Shown: positions 1-9,336 of the stretch, piece by piece
Layout of the letters: each line of letters starts with the position of its first letter
Numbering within the stretch: the stretch's first letter is position 1
Origin: a virus
Lineage: Duplodnaviria > Heunggongvirae > Uroviricota > Caudoviricetes
Length of the DNA: 9,336 nt
IMG/VR virus record: IMGVR_UViG_2734482772_000015
Location: 1-9,336 of that record
Reading direction: 5' to 3' (one strand)
The notes under the pieces: generated by a model
The model's database searches: none
What the model saw: the letters and a program-made list of their open reading frames with translations, nothing else
What the model was told of the DNA's origin: nothing
Translations under genes and position numbers: made by a program

Positions 1-537
1 TTACTCGTCCAGCAGAATCACTTTGCCAATATACGGCAGATGACGGTAACGCTGTGCGTAATCAATGCCGTAACCCACCACAAACTCATCCGGGATCGAG
101 AAACCGATAAATTCTACCGGGACGTTCACTTCACGACGGGACGGTTTATCCAGCAGCGTACAAATCGCCAGCGACTTCGGTTCGCGCAGGCTTAAGATCT
201 CACGCACTTTCGACAGTGTATTCCCCGAGTCGATGATATCTTCAACAATCAGCACGTCCTTGCCACGGATATCTTCATCCAGATCTTTGAGGATTTTCAC
301 ATCACGGGTGGTGGACATGCCGCTACCGTAGCTGGAGGCGGTCATAAAGTCGACTTCATGAGATACCTGAACTTCACGGCACAGGTCCGCCATAAACATA
401 AATGAGCCACGCAGCAGACCCACCAGCACCATATCGCTGCCGCTGTCTTTGTAACGCTCAGTAATCTGACGACCCAGTTCGGCGATACGCGCTTTAATCT
501 CCGCTTCGGGGATCATTACTTCTACAATATGTTTCAT
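1..537 (-). CDS. hpt: hypoxanthine phosphoribosyltransferase
   Basis: 178-aa ORF with ATG at 535-537 and TAA at 1-3. The translation matches enterobacterial Hpt as I remember it almost residue for residue, including the PRPP-binding loop [14 protein letters not shown]. Confidence 0.95.
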
Positions 538-876: not shown

Positions 877-890
877 AGCACAATAAGTAA

Positions 891-914
891 CCGAAGGCGG
901 AATTCCGCCCTCGG
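891..914 (-). terminator. GC-rich hairpin centred on GAATTC; possible minus-strand intrinsic terminator
   Basis: As minus-strand RNA, CCGAGGGCGG-AAUU-CCGCCUUCGG forms a 10-bp stem with one G-U pair and is followed by UUACUUAUU. The plus-strand version has an A-C mismatch, so the structure favours the minus strand. Confidence 0.35.
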
Positions 915-942
915 TACTCACATATGAGAAACGATATTTCTT

Positions 943-1060: not shown

Positions 1061-1084
1061 GCTATCAGTCAGGGAAATTTTGTA

Positions 1085-1165
1085 ATTTCACGGGGGTAAA
1101 AATTCGAAGAGGCGGGCACTCCAAGAGATAAGAGACGGTAGGGATTTTGCTCCCCCTCCTGAATG
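1085..1165. repeat. degenerate ~85-bp repeat, copy X2
   Basis: Diverged copy of 791-876 (see there). Confidence 0.45.
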
Positions 1166-1175
1166 CAATTTTTCG

Positions 1176-1350
1176 TATATATATATACAAAACAGTGCGG
1201 GTTATGCGGGTTAGCGGGTTATCTTTGCGTGCTAAGTATTTTTTATTCTTTAATATCAATGCGTTGAAAAATGACACGTTCAAATGTTAGCCAAATCGTA
1301 ACCCGCAAGCCATTCAAAATAACCCGCAACCACCCCCAAATAACCCGCAA
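1176..1350. other. iteron-flanked AT-rich segment: candidate replication origin (alternative: recombinase arm-type binding sites)
   Basis: (TA)6 at 1179-1190. Three tandem 9-bp units GCGGGTTAT / GCGGGTTAG / CGGGTTAT at 1197-1222. A 76-bp AT-rich spacer at 1223-1298. Three inverted copies of ATAACCCGCAA at 1299, 1320 and 1341, spaced exactly 21 bp apart. Confidence 0.5.
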
Positions 1351-1378
1351 ACACATCAGGAAAATGGGGCCAGTGACG

Positions 1379-1496
1379 CCACCGATACCCTATATTTGGG
1401 TATCGCAAGTAAGCCCCAAAATCTGGGTGTTACTCTTACTACCCAAACTACGGGTAGTTTCCGTAGTTTCATGGTCGAGTTGCAAATCTGCAACTC
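1379..1496. repeat. 118-bp direct repeat, copy B
   Basis: Direct repeat of 943-1060. The terminal palindrome is imperfect here (GAGTTGCAAATCTGCAACTC), so the central GATC is lost. Confidence 0.8.
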
Positions 1497-1786
1497 ACCC
1501 ACCAGCCAACCCATTTTGGGGCTGTCGGAAATATCAACCAGTTACTGACAATGCTCTGGGCGTTCTGTCTAGCTGGTGGCTGTGGCTGGACGCTAATTTT
1601 TGCGTACCACTTTTGCGCACTTTTTCAGGGTCGGATTTCAGATCCCCACCATTCTGGGAGCAGTTGCAGGGGCCGAATAAATCAATAGCCGTGCTGGTAA
1701 CGTTTTGCATGACAAGTTTTGACAGTTTTTTATCTTCCGGCCTCCTCAAAATTGAGGATTGAAGAAAAGTCAATGGGTTAGGTCAT

Positions 1787-1827
1787 CGTGCAAATTTGCA
1801 CTATGCCAGCCAACGCAATTTTGCGTT
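1787..1827. promoter_or_regulatory. two related palindromes (operator-like)
   Basis: GTGCAAATTTGCAC at 1787-1800 and AACGCAATTTTGCGTT at 1812-1827 share the core GCAA(A/T)TTTGC and lie just downstream of the 96-aa ORF on the minus strand. Confidence 0.3.
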
Positions 1828-1845
1828 ATCGGGAATATCAGCAAG

Positions 1846-2136
1846 TTACCGCCGCAGTCGTTCCGGCTTCTTCCACTGGTAAGTATTTTTCGCGCTCTCC
1901 CTCCGTTGTTGAGAACGGCGACGGTATGCCAGCAACTCAAGGACTCTGGTTCGTATGTTGCGCATATCCACGCCGTTAAGCTCAATACCGTCACGGCGCA
2001 TCACCTCAGCCACCACACGCGCGTAATTTTCGGCTATCACGCTGTCCGGCTGTGTAGCCTGTTCGTCAGGCTGCTGACTGATTCCGGTAATGCGGCGAAT
2101 TATTTTTAGTAGATCAGTTTCAGTCATTCTCGTCAT
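1846..2136 (-). CDS. hypothetical 96-aa protein, translationally coupled to terL
   Basis: ATG at 2134-2136 overlaps the terL stop codon (ATGA). Charged, helical-looking composition, unlike the Cys/His-rich antisense ORF. No family recognised. Confidence 0.5.
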   Translation of the reverse strand: MTRMTETDLLKIIRRITGISQQPDEQATQPDSVIAENYARVVAEVMRRDGIELNGVDMRNIRTRVLELLAYRRRSQQRRESAKNTYQWKKPERLRR

Positions 2137-3794
2137 ACCCCATCAAACGCCGCAAGTCGCTTTTTGTGGCTGTCGCTCATATCAAATGCAAATTCCTCAT
2201 GCTCTGCCTGGAATGTGCCAAACGCCATCAGCGCCGCAACGCTCGGGTCTATCTTGTTGGATGATTTTTTCTTGTTCGGCTTGATATTGGCGTTCGCGTC
2301 ACTCTGCATCACAACATTACTCATTGACCAGGCCAGCACCGGATCACCACGATGCACAATCACCTTCCGGTTAACAAAAACTTCGAACGATTTCGCCGCC
2401 GGACTGAAACGAAGGTATGTTTGCGGGAACGGCTCCACTTCTAATCCTGCCCCCTGTAGCTGCGTCCTCAGGTGCGTGGCGTTCCATGTATCGAAGCCCA
2501 CCAGCCTGATATTGAAATTCTCTGCATCCGCCATGATGTCATCACGGATACGGTCATAATCAATGCAGTCACCCGGTGTTGTGCGTATCCAGCCCGCCTT
2601 TACCCACTGGCGATAGATGGCGCGGTTTTTATTGGCGGGGTTCTGTAGCTGAAATTCCGGCAGATAGTGACGGGAAACCAGCATAATCTTTTTACCGACC
2701 GGAAAGGCATAGCACACGCTGGAAATATCGCTGGTTGATGATAAGTCCAGCCCCGCGTAGCACTCCTGCCCGTATAAATCCGCCTCCGCGAACGTTCCGG
2801 CGCACTCCGTCCATGCACCGTTACCCATCCACGGCGTAGCCCCCTGACACCAGATATTGAATCGCTTGGTGAGCATTTCCACCCACTGCGACGGAATACC
2901 CCGCGCTTTCTGGATGGTTGAGGCCAGTTTTTCACGATCGACGGAAACATCGATATTTGGATTCGCCTTTATCCACATCGCCGGATCGTCAACCTCGCTT
3001 TCATCATCCAGCTCGTAAATCAGAACGAACATGGATTCGTTCATCTCTTCACCATCCAGTATCTGACAGCAATAGTCATAGTGTTGTTTACAGGCTGAAA
3101 CAACGTTGCTCCCCGATGTGGTAATGGCAAATAACAGCCCCTCCGGACGCGCCCCCATCCCCAGCTCAAGTGCGGAATAAACCCCGTTGTCTGGGTGCAG
3201 GTGATATTCATCCACAATGGCAAGACTCGGGTTTGTCCCCTCAATGGTTGCCGCTTTTGCTGCCAGTGGCTTTAACAGGCTGTTGGTTTTCGGGTGTATC
3301 ACCTTGTGCGCCTGAATATTTACCCGCTTTCGTAACGGTCGGGATAAAAGGCACATCTGACGCGCATCATCAAACACGATCCGCGCCTGATCACGACTCA
3401 CGGCGGCGGTGTAAATATCCTGCTGCCCGTTTTCCATAACCAGAAACCAGTTAGCCAGGATAGCGGCGACCGTGGATTTGGCATTTTTTCGCGGTACTTC
3501 AATGAATGCGCTGGTGTATTTGCGCCGTCCGGTGGCCTTAACCTTAAAGCCCAGGATGCACGCAAAGGCGAACTGCTGCCACGGCTCCAGCTCAATGGGG
3601 CTACCACGCATTGCGCCTTTTACGTGCGGACACACCCTGGAAAAGGCAATAAACCGCTCAACGACCTCCGGATCGAACGTGTAAAGGGGGTTTTCAAGGT
3701 CAGAAAAATACCGTTTAACGGCCTGTTTCAGTCGTTTACAGGCCGTAATTTTGCCGTTTTTTACGCCTTCTGCGTACTCATGCCAGGCAGTCAA
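2133..3794 (-). CDS. phage terminase large subunit
   Basis: 553 aa with the overall layout of a phage terminase large subunit, including an N-terminal ATPase region with a Walker-A-like PRKNAKST. The start codon is TTG at 3792-3794, preceded by the SD-like GAGGAAGAGGA. No in-frame ATG occurs until about residue 62. Confidence 0.88.
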   Translation of the reverse strand: MTAWHEYAEGVKNGKITACKRLKQAVKRYFSDLENPLYTFDPEVVERFIAFSRVCPHVKGAMRGSPIELEPWQQFAFACILGFKVKATGRRKYTSAFIEVPRKNAKSTVAAILANWFLVMENGQQDIYTAAVSRDQARIVFDDARQMCLLSRPLRKRVNIQAHKVIHPKTNSLLKPLAAKAATIEGTNPSLAIVDEYHLHPDNGVYSALELGMGARPEGLLFAITTSGSNVVSACKQHYDYCCQILDGEEMNESMFVLIYELDDESEVDDPAMWIKANPNIDVSVDREKLASTIQKARGIPSQWVEMLTKRFNIWCQGATPWMGNGAWTECAGTFAEADLYGQECYAGLDLSSTSDISSVCYAFPVGKKIMLVSRHYLPEFQLQNPANKNRAIYRQWVKAGWIRTTPGDCIDYDRIRDDIMADAENFNIRLVGFDTWNATHLRTQLQGAGLEVEPFPQTYLRFSPAAKSFEVFVNRKVIVHRGDPVLAWSMSNVVMQSDANANIKPNKKKSSNKIDPSVAALMAFGTFQAEHEEFAFDMSDSHKKRLAAFDGV

Positions 3795-4134
3795 GCTCGT
3801 CCTCTTCCTCTGTTTCCGGTGGATTTCTGCGGCGGCTTACCGGGTCAAAACCCAGCAAAGAAGCCATTTTGATCATTATTCTTTCTGCGTCAGCCTTTGC
3901 GCTCAGGGCGGGGTTTCTGCTCTCGCTGCCCTGACTGTTAACAATGCTGAACCCGCGCGTCGCAAGGTCTTCGACGGCTTTGCGGTATATGGAGTAGTTA
4001 ACGCAATACAGTTCCAGATTGCTCCAGTCGGCGGGGGTAAGGTCTTCCCGCCCGGAAAGCTGGCGCGATTTTTCCTTCCACTGCCTGACCGCGATTTCAT
4101 CCAGGTAAGCGGGGGCTTTTGGTGGTCTTGCCAT
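3778..4134 (-). CDS. phage terminase small subunit (P27-like)
   Basis: 119 aa from the ATG at 4132-4134, beginning MARPPKAPAYLDE, which is typical of P27-family small terminases. Acidic C-terminal tail. Its 3' end overlaps the terL start by 17 nt. The longer 165-aa reading was rejected. Confidence 0.75.
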   Translation of the reverse strand: MARPPKAPAYLDEIAVRQWKEKSRQLSGREDLTPADWSNLELYCVNYSIYRKAVEDLATRGFSIVNSQGSESRNPALSAKADAERIMIKMASLLGFDPVSRRRNPPETEEEDELDCLA

Positions 4135-4149
4135 GTTCTTTTTTCGCCC

Positions 4150-4260
4150 AATTATTTTCAAAAAAATTACCGTGCACAAAAATTTGAGGGGGCGGTCGGT
4201 GTCCGGCAGGGACGGTTTCGTCCTGAAAACCACCCCCACCCCCTCTGACGGCCTCACCAG
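4150..4260. other. candidate cos / packaging-initiation region in the HNH-TerS gap
   Basis: The 285-bp non-coding gap (4138-4422) holds an A-rich tract (4155-4185) and a GC-rich segment with inverted GAGGGGG (4186-4192) / CCCCCTC (4239-4245) flanking GGACG-gtt-tCGTCC. The position between HNH and TerS is where cos sites sit in HK97-like phages. Confidence 0.35.
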
Positions 4261-4422
4261 CGATTGCGAAAACATTCCATGACCTCGCGGTCACGGTCGG
4301 TTAATCGCTTCGCTGTGGTGCGTTTTGTGCGCCCTGTCCTGTTGGCTTTGTGCTCTGTCTCCTGTGTCTTCCATGTGTCACGCTGCCTTATCAGTCCACG
4401 TATCAGCCTGGTTTGCTCCTGT

Positions 4423-4863
4423 TCAGTCATCATCGCCATACATCCAGTCGTTACGGTGTGCCGCCCGTTCTTCCTGCTCGCGATACATGCCCGCTTTACG
4501 GTTTGCTTTCGTGGCTGGATCTTCCCGTGTCGTCTTACGGTTGTGGCACGTCTGGCACAATGCCTGGTGATTCCACTCAGGCCAGAAGAGAACATCACCG
4601 CCGCCATTGATGGGAATGATGTGATCCACCACAAGAGCTGGCGTATAAATCCCCTTAGCCAGACAACGCACGCATAACGGGTTTTTGCTCAGGTACAGGG
4701 CGCGGTATTTGTCCCACTGTCGGGAATACCCGCGCGCGCGGCGGTGTCCCCGTCTGGCATCCTCTGCACGCCATGCAGCCCGCCTGTGCTCTTCACACTT
4801 GCCGGACTTCACGCGCTTATTACAGCCAGGCTCAGTGCATCGCCTTAATGGTTGCCACGGCAT
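4423..4863 (-). CDS. HNH endonuclease (terminase-associated)
   Basis: 146 aa with paired Cys pairs (CTEPGC...C and CVRC), VDHIIP, and N...LC..CHNRKT, i.e. an HNH motif. Its start overlaps the connector stop (TGATG). Confidence 0.85.
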   Translation of the reverse strand: MPWQPLRRCTEPGCNKRVKSGKCEEHRRAAWRAEDARRGHRRARGYSRQWDKYRALYLSKNPLCVRCLAKGIYTPALVVDHIIPINGGGDVLFWPEWNHQALCQTCHNRKTTREDPATKANRKAGMYREQEERAAHRNDWMYGDDD

Positions 4864-5165
4864 CAGTACACCCCCACATCACGATAAACCGACCAGAGCG
4901 CAGAAATAGCCATAGGCAGTTCCGAGTGCTCAACTGGTGAAACCGCTTCCCGGTTCTCGTACAGAAAAGCGATGTACATCAGGCAACCAACACGTATTGC
5001 CGGGGTAAATTCCAGGCCGTCTTCAAAACGTTTCCCGATATGCTTCTGGCAGGCTTCCAGCGCCGCATCGGTATATATTTGCAGAAGTTCAACCTCACCA
5101 TAAAAATCATCATCAAGGCGAAGATGGGCCATTACTTCATTAAGCGTAATTCTGGATTCACTCAT
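4863..5165 (-). CDS. head-tail connector / DNA-packaging protein (gp6-like)
   Basis: 100 aa from the ATG at 5163-5165, with the SD AAGGTGA upstream. The N-terminus MSESRITLNEVMAHLRLDDD resembles gp6-type head-tail connectors. Its start overlaps the portal 3' end. Confidence 0.65.
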   Translation of the reverse strand: MSESRITLNEVMAHLRLDDDFYGEVELLQIYTDAALEACQKHIGKRFEDGLEFTPAIRVGCLMYIAFLYENREAVSPVEHSELPMAISALWSVYRDVGVY

Positions 5166-6372
5166 CTTTTTCACCTTTAATTTCCACAGTCTGCTTCCAT
5201 GCCTGGCTGAACTCGTCACCCCCTTCACGCGGCGGCATACCCTCACGCTCACGGGCTTCGTTCGGATTCATGATCCCGTTCTTAATCCCTTTCTCATACG
5301 TGGCATAACGTTCGGTGGGTGTGGCGCGTAATAAATCGGCTGAATCAAACTCAACCAGATAACGGGTACCAGGTACGGGAGAAGCCACCAGCAAAGCGGC
5401 CTTGATTTGCTGTTCGAAGTTCGCCAGCCATGGGCGCATTGTCATGGTCAGAAACGCGCGGCTTGCCTCGCTGAAATTGCTGTAGGTGCTGTTGCTGTAT
5501 TCCTGCAGAAAAATAGGCGATACGTTGAACATGCGGGCGATGTCTTCAATGGAGAAGCGACGGGAGGCCAGCCATTCCGCATCCTGGTTACTCATTCCCA
5601 GTTGCTTGTAATCCATGCCCCCTTCAAGGATTGGCGTTTTTCCGGCATTTTTCGCCCCCTTGTAGCGTTCCAGAGCATCTAATGCCTGTTTACCTTTCAC
5701 GCCGTCCAGCCATTCGCCTGACGTGATAATCCCTGCCGCCATCATGCCATCTTTCATAATGCTGGCTCCGTGGCGCTGTTGAGCAAGGCCAAGCCCAAGC
5801 GCCTCACGGCAAATCGTGACAGGGGAACGCCCCAGAAAGCCATCATCCGAGGCATAGCGGAGATGCAGAACTTCTTCCTGTAAATACGTGCGCACCGTTC
5901 CTGTATAGGGTTCGGTGATGGTATAGCGGTATTTGTGTGCGCCTGTGCGTTCCGGTACAACACACCCCGGCGCATAAGGATGAAGTGATTTTGGCTGCCC
6001 GTCTTGCCCCCACTCAATAACCGCATAGGCGTTACCGTTCAGCAGGCAGTGACGCATCATTGTGCGTTTAAACTGGTAAGGTGTCTGGCACGAATTAGGC
6101 TGCTCATTCAGCAGAATATCTACCGGGTGACTGTCCAGCCATTCCCGCGCCTCCCTGCCCTTGTCATTACGTACCAGATACAGATAACACGGCATCGTGG
6201 CCACCGCCTCAGCGATGACAGAAACCGCGTTCATCACTGCAGGCAATGATTCAGCCGTCCCGGCAGAAACATATTCTCCGGATCCGGTATTCGGTACGCC
6301 GGACAGCGCCAGAAAATCATCAATGGACAGGTTACGCTGCTCGCTTTTTTTACGACTAAAAGGCCACCACAT
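5158..6372 (-). CDS. phage portal protein (HK97 family)
   Basis: About 404 aa from the ATG at 6370-6372, which lies 1 nt after the protease stop. Size and position fit a portal. The track's longer start at 6462 is a TTG and was not preferred. Confidence 0.88.
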   Translation of the reverse strand: MWWPFSRKKSEQRNLSIDDFLALSGVPNTGSGEYVSAGTAESLPAVMNAVSVIAEAVATMPCYLYLVRNDKGREAREWLDSHPVDILLNEQPNSCQTPYQFKRTMMRHCLLNGNAYAVIEWGQDGQPKSLHPYAPGCVVPERTGAHKYRYTITEPYTGTVRTYLQEEVLHLRYASDDGFLGRSPVTICREALGLGLAQQRHGASIMKDGMMAAGIITSGEWLDGVKGKQALDALERYKGAKNAGKTPILEGGMDYKQLGMSNQDAEWLASRRFSIEDIARMFNVSPIFLQEYSNSTYSNFSEASRAFLTMTMRPWLANFEQQIKAALLVASPVPGTRYLVEFDSADLLRATPTERYATYEKGIKNGIMNPNEAREREGMPPREGGDEFSQAWKQTVEIKGEKDE

Positions 6373-6373
6373 A

Positions 6374-6934
6374 TCACAACCCCGCCAGCTCAGACCAGCG
6401 ATGACGATTATTTCCTGTCGGGCATAATTCAGGGTGCTGTGCAAACAACGAACGGTGGGCAATCTCCACGCCAGATTCTGGATAAGCAGGCATCGACGTT
6501 ATTGTGATTTCACGGAGTTCAGCGGCGGTTACGGTACGCAAATACGGTTTTTGCGCGATACTCCACTCCTCGCATAATGCGCGAAAACCAAAGCTCATTC
6601 CTGTAATGTCGCCACGCTCCACCAGCGTAAGCACATCTTTTCCAAGCTGGGTATCCGGCGGTGTCAGTTCAAAACGTAACCCGGTGTTATCCTCAGTCAG
6701 TACCAGAGTGCCGGATTTGGTGCGCCCCAGCAGTTGGGTATAGTCATGCTCATACAGGCAGCGCACATCATTACCCGCCGCCAGATAGTCAGCAAAAGCC
6801 CCCGGCGTGAACTGTTCGCGGAATTCGTCCCAGATAATTTCTGAAAGGCTGTTCCAGCGAACGGCATACCCCACCAGCTTTTTATTGCTGGCGGTCAGTT
6901 CAGATGTGCGGATTTCAAAATCGGTGTTTTTCAT
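6374..6934 (-). CDS. prohead maturation protease (HK97 family)
   Basis: 186 aa with ATG at 6932-6934 and SD GGGGA. Size and its position between the capsid and portal genes fit a prohead protease. Confidence 0.8.
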   Translation of the reverse strand: MKNTDFEIRTSELTASNKKLVGYAVRWNSLSEIIWDEFREQFTPGAFADYLAAGNDVRCLYEHDYTQLLGRTKSGTLVLTEDNTGLRFELTPPDTQLGKDVLTLVERGDITGMSFGFRALCEEWSIAQKPYLRTVTAAELREITITSMPAYPESGVEIAHRSLFAQHPELCPTGNNRHRWSELAGL

Positions 6935-6953
6935 CGGTGTATCCCCTGAAGCT

Positions 6954-6977
6954 AAAAAAGGAGGCCGAAGCCTCCTT
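6954..6977 (-). terminator. intrinsic terminator / attenuator between the capsid and protease genes
   Basis: Minus-strand RNA reads AAGGAGGC-UUCG-GCCUCCUU followed by UUUUAG: an 8-bp stem with a C(UUCG)G tetraloop and a U-tract, lying between the capsid stop (6983-6985) and the protease start. Confidence 0.6.
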
Positions 6978-6982
6978 GCTCA

Positions 6983-8128
6983 TTACTCACCAGCCTGAAT
7001 TTCCAGAATCTTGATGGCGTTCGAATCCACCACACCACCGCCCAGATATTTCTGGGTATAGATGTTAATGAATCCGGGTTCGCTGAAGTCCGGACGGGTA
7101 CGCGTACCGGTTTCATGGTCAACGATGAAATAACCGCGCTTAAAGTCACCTACTGCAATCACACCGTCCGGCATAAATTCCAGATATTCAACCGGAAGCC
7201 CCAGCAGAGAATCAGGATCACCAGCCTGTAAACGATCGCGCCAGATGTAATCACCAGTGGCATTTTTCAGTTTTTGTGCGGAGGCGGCTGTATTTGAGTT
7301 CATCACCCATACAGCTTTTTTGCGGTACTTATTGCGCAGCGTAAATTTCAGGTCAATCAGCATGTCGGCGCTGAGACTGCCAGTAACTTTTTTCGTCTGG
7401 AGCGTACCGAAAGGACGGGTTTTGTCGTTATCCGCAGTGCGCGGGAACGCCAGGAAACCTTTAGCTTTTTTCTCGCCGTCACCGGAAACCAGATCCGTTT
7501 CTTCGGTATCAACGAAAGTGTCGCCAATTTCAGAAGATAACCAGCTCATAATATCGACTTCGGAAAAATCGATAATTTCCTGAGTGGTTTTCGGGTAAGC
7601 GTAGATCGGATACAGGCGGATGCTGACTTCGTTCAGTTTCGGCGTTGCCGTCTGGTTACGTGCCGCACCTTCCTCGCCATGCTCAACCACCGCGCCACCA
7701 GCGGAAACCAGTTGCTTAAATTCATTGCTGTGAATGGTTTTAACGGTACAGATTTTGCGCATCACCGATTCATCGGCAAGCTGGCGCATAATCTCTTTAT
7801 TCAGCTCGGGAATAACGGTATAGCCACCATCAGCCGGGACACTGCCGGACAGGTTGCGGGTTTCCCCGGTCAGAATGTAAGAGCGCAGTTCATCTTTGGT
7901 GATTTTCTCTTCGACGGAAACACCAGGCTGGTTACGTTCTTCATCCGCAACAGCTTCAAGACGGGAAATTTCTGTGTCGAGGGAATCGGCTTTTGCACGC
8001 AGTTCATCAAACTGTTTGCCCTCGTCATCGTTCAGGCTGCGGTTTTCACTGTCGGCTTTTTCCAGCAGGGATCGCATCTGGTTTTTCAGGGCGGTTTTTT
8101 GCTGGCGGAGTTCGATTAATTTCTTCAT
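6983..8128 (-). CDS. major capsid protein (HK97 fold) with N-terminal scaffolding (delta) domain
   Basis: 381 aa with ATG at 8126-8128. The first ~100 residues are coiled-coil-like and charged (delta domain), followed by a capsid-like body ending in a Gly-rich C-terminus. Confidence 0.9.
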   Translation of the reverse strand: MKKLIELRQQKTALKNQMRSLLEKADSENRSLNDDEGKQFDELRAKADSLDTEISRLEAVADEERNQPGVSVEEKITKDELRSYILTGETRNLSGSVPADGGYTVIPELNKEIMRQLADESVMRKICTVKTIHSNEFKQLVSAGGAVVEHGEEGAARNQTATPKLNEVSIRLYPIYAYPKTTQEIIDFSEVDIMSWLSSEIGDTFVDTEETDLVSGDGEKKAKGFLAFPRTADNDKTRPFGTLQTKKVTGSLSADMLIDLKFTLRNKYRKKAVWVMNSNTAASAQKLKNATGDYIWRDRLQAGDPDSLLGLPVEYLEFMPDGVIAVGDFKRGYFIVDHETGTRTRPDFSEPGFINIYTQKYLGGGVVDSNAIKILEIQAGE

Positions 8129-8198
8129 GAAGGTTTTCTCGTATTGGTTAAGATTCAGGACGTGAAACCAACACGGAGGGAGCGCCGCCCGACACTCT

Positions 8199-8247
8199 CG
8201 GCATCTCGCAGATCAACCCGGCATCGCGCAGGGGGTCAGGCGGCATT
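8199..8247 (-). promoter_or_regulatory. phased direct repeats upstream of the capsid operon (candidate activator site / late promoter region)
   Basis: CGGCATCTCGCA at 8199-8210, CGGCATCGCGCA at 8219-8230 and CGGCATT at 8241-8247 are spaced about 20-22 bp apart, 70-120 nt upstream of the capsid ATG in the 245-bp gap. Confidence 0.3.
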
Positions 8248-8361
8248 GTGGCGGCTCACGTCTGAGTGCCACACGCCAACATATACATAAAAATCAGTAT
8301 GTAAATATCAGCCAGAATCACTGAACAGCCAGAAACAACCACGAACAAATAATTTACAAAA

Positions 8362-8390
8362 CCTGAAAAGAAAACCCGGAAAAATCCGGG
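8362..8390 (-). terminator. putative intrinsic terminator after the 82-aa ORF
   Basis: Minus-strand RNA reads CCCGGA-UUUU-UCCGGG followed by UUUUCUUUUCAGG, beginning 12 nt after the stop codon at 8402-8404. The stem is short (6 bp). Confidence 0.45.
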
Positions 8391-8401
8391 CCTTTATCGC
8401 T

Positions 8402-8650
8402 TTACTGTTTCATGGAATCCCGCATTCTGCGTCTTATTTTCCACAGATATTCGATCATCGCTTCCACCTGCTCACGGTTGGTTGCGAAAATTTCCCCTGT
8501 CAGTGAGCTACGCAGAAAATCATGATGATCTACAAAAAACAACGCATCGGAAGAAAGCAGACGGCGATATTTTTTTGCTGTCGTGGTTTCCAGATCATCA
8601 AAACCATGAAACTTTTTATGTTGCTGGACTTCTTCAAATGTCACTGGCAT
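8402..8650 (-). CDS. hypothetical 82-aa protein
   Basis: ATG at 8648-8650 with a strong SD (GGGGGGA) and good spacing after the SSB stop. No family recognised. Confidence 0.5.
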   Translation of the reverse strand: MPVTFEEVQQHKKFHGFDDLETTTAKKYRRLLSSDALFFVDHHDFLRSSLTGEIFATNREQVEAMIEYLWKIRRRMRDSMKQ

Positions 8651-8668
8651 GTATCCCCCCTGTTATCG

Positions 8669-9094
8669 CTAAAACGGTATTTCATCCCCGTACGGGTCAT
8701 CGTGCTGGCCTGTCTGTTGTTTTGCCCTGTTCAGTGCGTCAGTGGCCTGCCCCTGCTGGCCTTTTTTGCCACCAGGTCGCGCCGTTCGCGCACTGATTAC
8801 GCTGTCTGCGATAACCTGCCAGCCCTGCCGCGTTTCCCCGTTCTGGCCTGTCCACTGGCTTACCTGCATGTTACCCGCCACGCTCACCAGCTCGCCTTTG
8901 TGGTGTTTTGCCAGTGCGTCGGCCTGTCTGCCAAACGCCAGGACGGATAACCACATCATCGCCGTTCCGTCATCTGCCTGGCTGCACGGCAGGGGGACCG
9001 CCATGCTCGCCATAGCCATTTGTGTGCCCTTGCTGGTGGTCTTTAACTGTGGGTCAGCCACCAGCCGTCCGTAAGCCGCTATCTGTGCTGTCAT
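8669..9094 (-). CDS. ssb: single-stranded DNA-binding protein (SSB-like)
   Basis: 141 aa with an OB-fold-like N-terminal core, a Gly/Gln-rich linker, and an acidic C-terminal tip ...DDPYGDEIPF (compare the canonical SSB tip DDDIPF). Its start overlaps the upstream ORF stop (ATGA). Confidence 0.75.
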   Translation of the reverse strand: MTAQIAAYGRLVADPQLKTTSKGTQMAMASMAVPLPCSQADDGTAMMWLSVLAFGRQADALAKHHKGELVSVAGNMQVSQWTGQNGETRQGWQVIADSVISARTARPGGKKGQQGQATDALNRAKQQTGQHDDPYGDEIPF

Positions 9095-9336
9095 GCTGTC
9101 TGCTCTCCGGTTTTAACGTTGATGGTTGTCACCTGTTCCGCTTCGGCAATCTCCCGTTCTGTCAGCGTGGCAAAGTTTGCAGCTGCCGTTGTCATGAATG
9201 AGCTAATCAGTTCGGGATGTGCTTTCGCATATCCTTCCCCGGCGTTGCGGTCGATGATTTTTATCGACACCCTTAACCAGTGTTCCGTCAAATCAAGGGC
9301 GTGCGATTGTGATTTTTTTGTGTGCTTCGCTGTCAT
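9091..9336 (-). CDS. hypothetical 81-aa protein (start coincides with window edge; may extend upstream)
   Basis: The ORF begins at an ATG at 9334-9336 and is translationally coupled to ssb. No family recognised. The true start cannot be verified because the window ends here. Confidence 0.4.
   Translation of the reverse strand: MTAKHTKKSQSHALDLTEHWLRVSIKIIDRNAGEGYAKAHPELISSFMTTAAANFATLTEREIAEAEQVTTINVKTGEQTA

Follow-up and report, generated by a model that had tools for sequence, protein, structure and literature searches.

SaPI origins are built from two sets of iterons, and these iterons are specific to the initiator. P1 incA and F incC are iteron arrays that lie beside rep, lack an AT-rich melting region, and exert negative copy-number control. 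For PICIs, the origin was described as two iteron sets that flank an AT-rich region immediately 3′ of rep, and that of the EcCICFT073 PICI was tested functionally (PMC6092414). In the annotated P4 record (NC_001609), crr is located immediately 3′ of alpha, the helicase-primase gene, and ori 4.7 kb away, and both carry TGTTCACC. The origin type considered here is already known, and P4 is a precedent for split sites; for origins of capsid-forming PICIs (cf-PICIs), no description was found in the searchable literature.

We analyzed a 9,336-bp stretch of DNA, hereafter the window, which RefSeq genomes with the same DNA identify as the terL-distal end of an E. coli cf-PICI beside hpt, and which is 100% identical to positions 146-9481 of L260 (GCA_000797915.1, JUBR01000055.1). 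Pfam assigned positions 1-537 (minus strand) to hpt and the minus strand thereafter to a full HK97-type head and packaging set (capsid, protease, portal, connector, HNH, TerS, and TerL), with the TerL gene at 2133-3794 and the capsid gene at 6983-8128; an SSB gene occupies 8669-9094 (minus strand). At 9091-9336 (minus strand), an 81-aa gene comes after the island's own origin, and the same order was seen in sister islands. In RefSeq genomes, the cf-PICI measures approximately 15 kb and carries at its opposite end int, regulators, an Icd-like gene, DUF4222, and a large rep gene. The att core at the hpt-side island end is a 19-bp direct repeat, TATCACTCGGTGTATCACT, present at 602-620 as the reverse complement; in the full-length sister island L255, this 19-mer occurs just upstream of int and beside hpt. 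A tRNA/tmRNA scan of the window found none. Rfam searching of the whole window at E values up to 1 returned nothing in 900-1500 and one match at 6954-6984 (minus strand), BSR0709, which was rejected as spurious (21 bits versus a gathering score of 382). This match coincides with a terminator hairpin that follows the capsid gene.

The earlier note had singled out an origin-like cluster of repeats, here called X. Inspection of the sequence together with a repeat finder showed that the cluster is real and that every described part is present, with small corrections only. A (TA)6 tract at 1177-1188, a candidate easily melted element, forms the outer edge of the unit. Three tandem iterons GCGGGTTA start at 1197, 1206, and 1214 (1197-1221, plus strand, spacing 9 and 8) as claimed, but the middle copy has G instead of T as its ninth base. 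The AT-rich spacer does measure 76 bp (1223-1298); it is 68% A+T versus 49% for the whole window, and positions 1233-1272 are the most AT-rich 40-mer of 540-2140. On its other side, inverted iterons TAACCCGCAA start at 1299, 1320, and 1341 (1299-1348, minus strand, TAACCCGC(AA)) with the exact 21-bp phasing reported, but the first is preceded by G (GTAACCCGCAA) and not by A. An exact IHF core consensus, TATCAATGCGTTG, one of only two in the window, lies in the spacer at 1254-1266 and had been missed. We define the X core as 1150-1365 on the minus strand, the orientation in which X follows rep in the unsplit origins described below; 27 distinct copies and the geometry of the Rep family suggest that it is unit 2 of a two-unit DUF927-type origin. 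In alignments, the left part of the X cassette, E′ (1061-1149), is conserved as well.

All six exact copies of the 8-mer GCGGGTTA in the 9,336-bp window fall within 152 bp (1197-1348). When one mismatch or fewer was allowed, 21 matches were counted against 7.6 ± 2.6 expected, a number that none of 200 shuffles reached. Furthermore, the iterons, (TA)n, and spacer core show little or no variation among 27 distinct homologous copies from several flanking contexts, indicating that the cluster is not a chance pattern. The ATCAA...TTR positions of the IHF consensus were kept in 27 of 27 variants, and the length of (TA)n ranged from 5 to 8 repeats among islands with otherwise near-identical X copies. 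No DnaA boxes were found in or near X, and a promoter/terminator scan of 540-2140 gave neither enrichment nor a promoter-like site inside the cluster. It is worth noting that unsplit origins have (TA)n approximately 7-15 nt before the start codon of the following gene and that a ribosome-binding site lies in the gap; (TA)n might thus also act as the −10 element of a promoter whose −35 position is taken by the tandem iterons. The open reading frames at 1147-1290 (plus strand), 1271-1762 (plus strand), and 1065-1283 (minus strand) overlap the repeats, are unannotated in RefSeq genomes, and were taken as noncoding; the frame 1271-1762 was called as a 163-aa gene in four fetched assemblies and has no Pfam match.

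The X core was present in 137 of 5,426 complete E. coli genomes, and an exact-pattern scan detected X in 38 IMG/VR contigs. In a scan of one genome per species, the exact 28-mer of the tandem iterons had no matches, and the 21-bp-phased pattern gave at least 120 chance single matches in unrelated MAGs. In an unrelated genome, an uncultured Staphylococcus MAG (L092), three 21-bp-phased matches to the pattern TAACCCGCA occur within 520 bp (2374-2895).

X is bracketed by a 118-bp direct repeat, R, which the earlier note had missed; its two copies, at 943-1060 and 1379-1496, are 97% identical. R forms four consecutive hairpins (RNA fold z = −8.5), has no Rfam match, and shows in hairpin 1 a two-sided compensatory change between islands (GATACCC/GGGTATC versus GATCCCC/GGGGATC); either a structured RNA or a group of palindromic protein-binding sites would be conceivable. 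Many related islands have a single R near the island end. Between R and segment E, a conserved terminal island segment (766-880), there is a strong GC-rich hairpin at 890-915 (minus strand). As the alignment of E, E′, and the left flank of X showed E and E′ to be paralogous, the island end reads E-terminator-R and then E′-X-R, two tandem versions of one terminal unit. This tandem hints that an island with X and one without it recombined by unequal crossover. Recombination between the two R copies removes the cassette, and islands without X carry a single R. L254, which is 99.96% identical to window positions 1379-9336, joins 1060 directly to 1379, a precise R × R deletion of X; together with 12 similar places, it shows that near-identical X-less islands occur at least as often as those with X. 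X thus appears to be readily lost through recombination between the flanking 118-bp repeats, and the pair of window/L260 and L254 provides natural near-isogenic X-positive and X-negative islands for experiments.

That the segment might be native intergenic DNA had been named in the earlier note as the outcome that would overturn the origin reading. It proved instead to travel with the island and to occupy several chromosomal sites: the segment 900-1800 is at least 99% identical next to clpS/cspD and is also found at thiM/rcnR, tRNA-Ile/mug, and hpt, and the islands at these four att sites carry different integrases. Islands at other att sites begin to match the window at 766-789, and integrase-specific DNA is therefore confined to approximately 620-766.

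A search for the same motif beside a replication gene had been suggested, and it was successful in sister cf-PICIs. In strains 2824 (L001) and KSC9 (L005), a second cluster, TGCGGGTTAT, is located directly 3′ of a 707-aa DUF927 rep and consists of four copies phased by 21, 21, and 11 bp, an AT-rich gap, and two tandem inverted copies. When reversed, this rep-proximal cluster matches the window layout, including the G-variant first phased copy (GTAACCCGCAA). The encoded SaPI-Rep-like protein, RepA, matches the solved "pathogenicity island protein" 8TCH (E = 2.7e-15) and Pfam DUF927, as well as the helicase entry 5DGK (E = 0.0013). X-like sequence also occurs within contiguous origins. The L213/L244-type elements are PICIs that carry another capsid and packaging set; here rep, unit 1, X, and the next gene are contiguous, as seen in several of the IMG/VR contigs and, at a coverage of at least 80%, in 135 complete E. 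coli genomes, and the X homologue includes the spacer and (TA)n. In the O157:H7 cf-PICI L263, both units are adjacent after rep, and no distal copy was found in that island.

The Rep family was then surveyed in the best 80 of 110 loci, which cover RepA relatives of 100-67% identity and come from predicted viral contigs only. Among these best 80 loci, nearly all unsplit origins keep one geometry: two tandem copies, an AT-rich gap, and four phased copies, followed by one plus two phased copies, a second AT-rich gap, and two or three tandem copies, and (TA)n ends the origin in most loci but not all. In the same 80 loci, the iteron is GCGGGTTA with Reps at least 94% identical to RepA, GTGGGTTA with those 74-76% identical, and GAACCAAC with those 67-70% identical. 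RepA′, which differs from RepA mainly in its last ~100 residues, is accompanied by the iteron TGGGACAAC, i.e., (T)GGGACAAC. This change of iteron with Rep class, which occurs in both units, is the main evidence suggesting that the C-terminal domain reads the repeats and that unit 2 is an integral part of the origin. Rep would accordingly be expected to bind the iterons, and both units are probably needed, as two were present in all GCGGGTTA-type elements examined. Judged from sequence, X is a genuine origin module with an origin-like architecture.

Among the best 80 of 110 loci, those of GCGGGTTA type fell into 12 with 10-12 iterons beside rep and 27 with unit 1 only, the latter having 5-7 iterons without (TA)n. 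Wherever the remainder of such an island was available, the missing unit was X, located after terL with its orientation preserved; in L001, it lies approximately 7.8 kb from unit 1. After removal of duplicate contigs, distal X was found in 26 of 26 cf-PICIs with a GCGGGTTA Rep versus 11 of 33 with other Reps, for which Fisher's test gave p = 3.5e-8, a value that overstates the association because the loci are not phylogenetically independent. The 11 comprised 6 of 16 islands with an alpha-like Rep, 4 of 12 with an AAA_25-type, and 1 of 4 with a second alpha-like class, and the one RepA′ island had none (0/1); as 5 of the 22 X-negative loci extend only ~300-490 bp beyond the single R, a strict criterion changes the fraction to 11 of 28. 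X accompanies RepA in several flanking contexts. A P4-like split origin, with one repeat in two clusters kilobases apart, was thus present in the RepA-type sister cf-PICIs (26/26), and in the window's island X alone carries GCGGGTTA. In L341 (IMGVR_UViG_3300028977_000034), which belongs to the GAACCAAC class, the 1 kb downstream of rep holds only six iterons, i.e., unit 1 only. A split or half-origin may have evolved on more than one occasion.

The island in the window has a replicon of another kind. The 145 bp past its right end (L260:1-145) contain TGTTCACC/GGTGAACA repeats, and the L260 contig ends inside this TGTTCACC iteron array, where the repeats of the island's own origin probably interrupted the assembly. 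The rep gene of this very island lies neither in the window nor elsewhere on the contig. L255 and L254, 98-99.96% identical to the window, and other relatives, L006 and L007, encode a 605-aa Rep (RepB) with D5_N, DUF5906, and Pox_D5 domains, the C terminus of which matches the P4 origin-binding domain 1KA8 (E = 3e-24). In sister islands, RepB is followed by oriB, with nine TGTTCACC copies in ~215 bp, and then by the 81-aa gene; TGTTCACC is the annotated type 1 repeat of P4 (NC_001609). From the 145 bp of adjacent origin and from the islands 98-99.96% identical to the window, we infer that this island has a Rep of the same P4 alpha-like type with TGTTCACC iterons, and X would therefore be noncognate here. 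X does have the two iteron sets and AT-rich region of a PICI origin (three tandem and three phased iterons, 76 bp). It lies, however, after terL and ~8 kb from the rep region rather than immediately 3′ of rep, the position taken by its homologues in L213/L244 and L263, and its iterons are GCGGGTTA, which belong with DUF927 Reps, rather than the TGTTCACC of the island. Therefore, the origin reading of the earlier note holds for the architecture, which is that of unit 2 beside rep in other PICIs, but X does not appear to be this island's own origin.

Comparison of the two island types located the exchange. The similarity of RepA-type islands to the window stops at 9127, and residues 1-146 of RepA and RepB share 95% identity, beyond which the two proteins are unrelated. 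The exchanged block therefore comprises the helicase and DNA-binding domains plus the proximal origin, and X is outside it. The N-terminal 146 codons of rep (L001:25117-25554, L006:20834-21271) end at a sharp recombination junction inside the gene; the shared 146-residue domain that they encode has no Pfam match. A fourth replication module, in which a 471-aa AAA_25 protein replaces the DUF927 or alpha-like Rep, is found in three hpt-site cf-PICIs (L256, L258, and L259). Because these islands are otherwise similar and use the same att site, the replication cassette appears to be freely exchanged.

Taken together, these data suggest, with a probability of roughly 70%, that X is a stranded unit 2 of a DUF927-type two-unit origin that is noncognate in this island. 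In the mechanism that we propose, the C-terminal domain of a DUF927 (SaPI-Rep-like) helicase-initiator would recognize GCGGGTTA(T), and the iteron sets would surround an AT-rich, IHF-site-bearing melting region, accompanied by (TA)n. Units 1 and 2 lie side by side after rep in most relatives, but in one cf-PICI lineage unit 2 is ~8 kb off, after terL at the island end. On the excised circle of such an island, the initiator would bind at both of these distant sites, much as alpha of P4 binds crr and ori. The present island would then have swapped the helicase/DNA-binding part of rep and the proximal origin for a P4 alpha-like cassette (TGTTCACC), and unit 2, being outside the exchanged block, would have stayed behind without a cognate initiator in cis. 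X is most likely inert in this island unless another element supplies a GCGGGTTA-type Rep.

Two further readings connect X with the ends or the packaging of the island. The earlier note had offered a cluster of integrase or excisionase arm-type sites as the alternative to an origin, here as part of attR, and the position near the island end and the short motifs in direct and inverted repeat would agree with it. The cluster, however, is 577-730 bp from the att core (602-620), outside the ~620-766 to which integrase-specific DNA is limited; identical repeats occur in islands at hpt, clpS/cspD, thiM/rcnR, and tRNA-Ile/mug with different integrases; and in L244 and L263 the cassette is internal and adjoins rep. 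Arm sites of attP are expected within the arms and specific to the integrase, and X is neither, which makes this alternative hardly credible. Similarly, the cluster is just downstream of terL and contains an IHF consensus, and lambda cosB also holds an IHF site, so that a packaging signal (cos or terminase-binding sites) of the HK97-like cf-PICI packaging module could be imagined. Such a site would be inherited together with its cognate terminase. X does not follow this pattern: it adjoins rep in PICIs whose packaging set is unrelated (lambda-like capsid, decoration protein, and different terS), and many cf-PICIs whose TerS, TerL, and HNH are 92-99% identical are X-less. Because X accompanies rep and not the terminase, the packaging reading fails, and we regard it as extremely improbable.

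The remaining readings assign the orphan copy a function in replication. X might be a crr-like cis element also used by the island's own Rep, for example through the shared N-terminal 146 residues reading GCGGGTTAT; these residues are 95% identical between RepA and RepB, and the annotation of the P4 record states that alpha requires crr as a second site in cis in addition to ori. Yet RepA′ has the N terminus and core of RepA but TGGGACAAC iterons, no GCGGGTTA cluster, and no X, indicating that specificity follows the C-terminal domain, which in RepB has the P4 TGTTCACC-binding fold. As 10 of the 16 RepB islands also lack X, one of them being 99.96% identical to the window's island, a role for the resident Rep seems improbable. 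A less improbable, although still tentative, alternative is that X works in trans, either because the GCGGGTTA-type Rep of a co-resident PICI fires X and co-amplifies the island or because X titrates or handcuffs that Rep, causing incompatibility or interference. X alone has a complete PICI origin layout (two iteron sets, AT-rich spacer, IHF site, and (TA)n), about one-third of the non-RepA islands keep it, and E. coli genomes often contain several related islands, at up to 5-8 places per genome. All six iterons are kept in 9 of 11 orphan copies versus 25 of 26 cognate copies, with no significant difference, and the orphans are spread over two flanking contexts and three other Rep types; intact orphan copies could mean retained function rather than leftover. 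However, the window's X is ~99% identical to that of RepA islands, so that the orphan copies are too recent for decay to be informative. Near-identical X-less islands are at least as common, and every GCGGGTTA-type element examined has two units, of which one may not suffice. Moreover, the best 80 of 110 RepA loci include no contig from the seven IMG/VR genome ids in which orphan-X islands occur, which is a weak test that covers predicted viral contigs. We therefore consider it doubtful that orphan X is kept for replication by, or sequestering of, another satellite's DUF927 initiator; if true, it would amount to origin-level cross-talk or interference between competing phage satellites.

With X read as a stranded unit 2, cf-PICI origins are located, and DUF927-type PICI origins would consist of two units in a fixed geometry. 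The searchable literature yielded no description of this two-unit geometry, of the cf-PICI split form, or of orphan units after module exchange. In a widespread E. coli cf-PICI lineage, the two units are parted by the whole packaging module, providing a natural and genetically testable parallel to P4 crr and ori. Replication modules would swap as cassettes of helicase/DNA-binding domain plus proximal origin, stranding the distal unit, and an orphan X could thus serve as a simple marker of such swaps. When such islands are annotated, the resident Rep needs to be checked before a terminal iteron cluster is called the island's origin.

Compared with the known systems, X resembles PICI and SaPI origins in that two iteron sets flank an AT-rich melting region (PMC6092414), and further in that its iteron is found beside a SaPI-Rep-like (DUF927) initiator gene and covaries with initiator specificity. 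Unlike the described PICI origins, X is found past terL at the island's far end, with ~8 kb separating it from any rep, and is mismatched to the resident initiator; within its family it is moreover the second of two units, a doubling that is not explicit in PMC6092414. Like P1 incA and F incC, X would be an extra iteron array beyond the minimal origin, able to bind the initiator, but unlike them it has a full origin layout. It differs from P4 in that the RepA-type initiator is a DUF927 protein and not alpha, that the iteron is GCGGGTTA and not TGTTCACC, and that the units of relatives are contiguous; in the window's island, the P4-type iteron occurs only next to rep. The RepA-type cf-PICIs nevertheless share with P4 ori and crr one initiator-specific repeat in two clusters, which are ~8 kb apart in the islands and 4.7 kb apart in P4.
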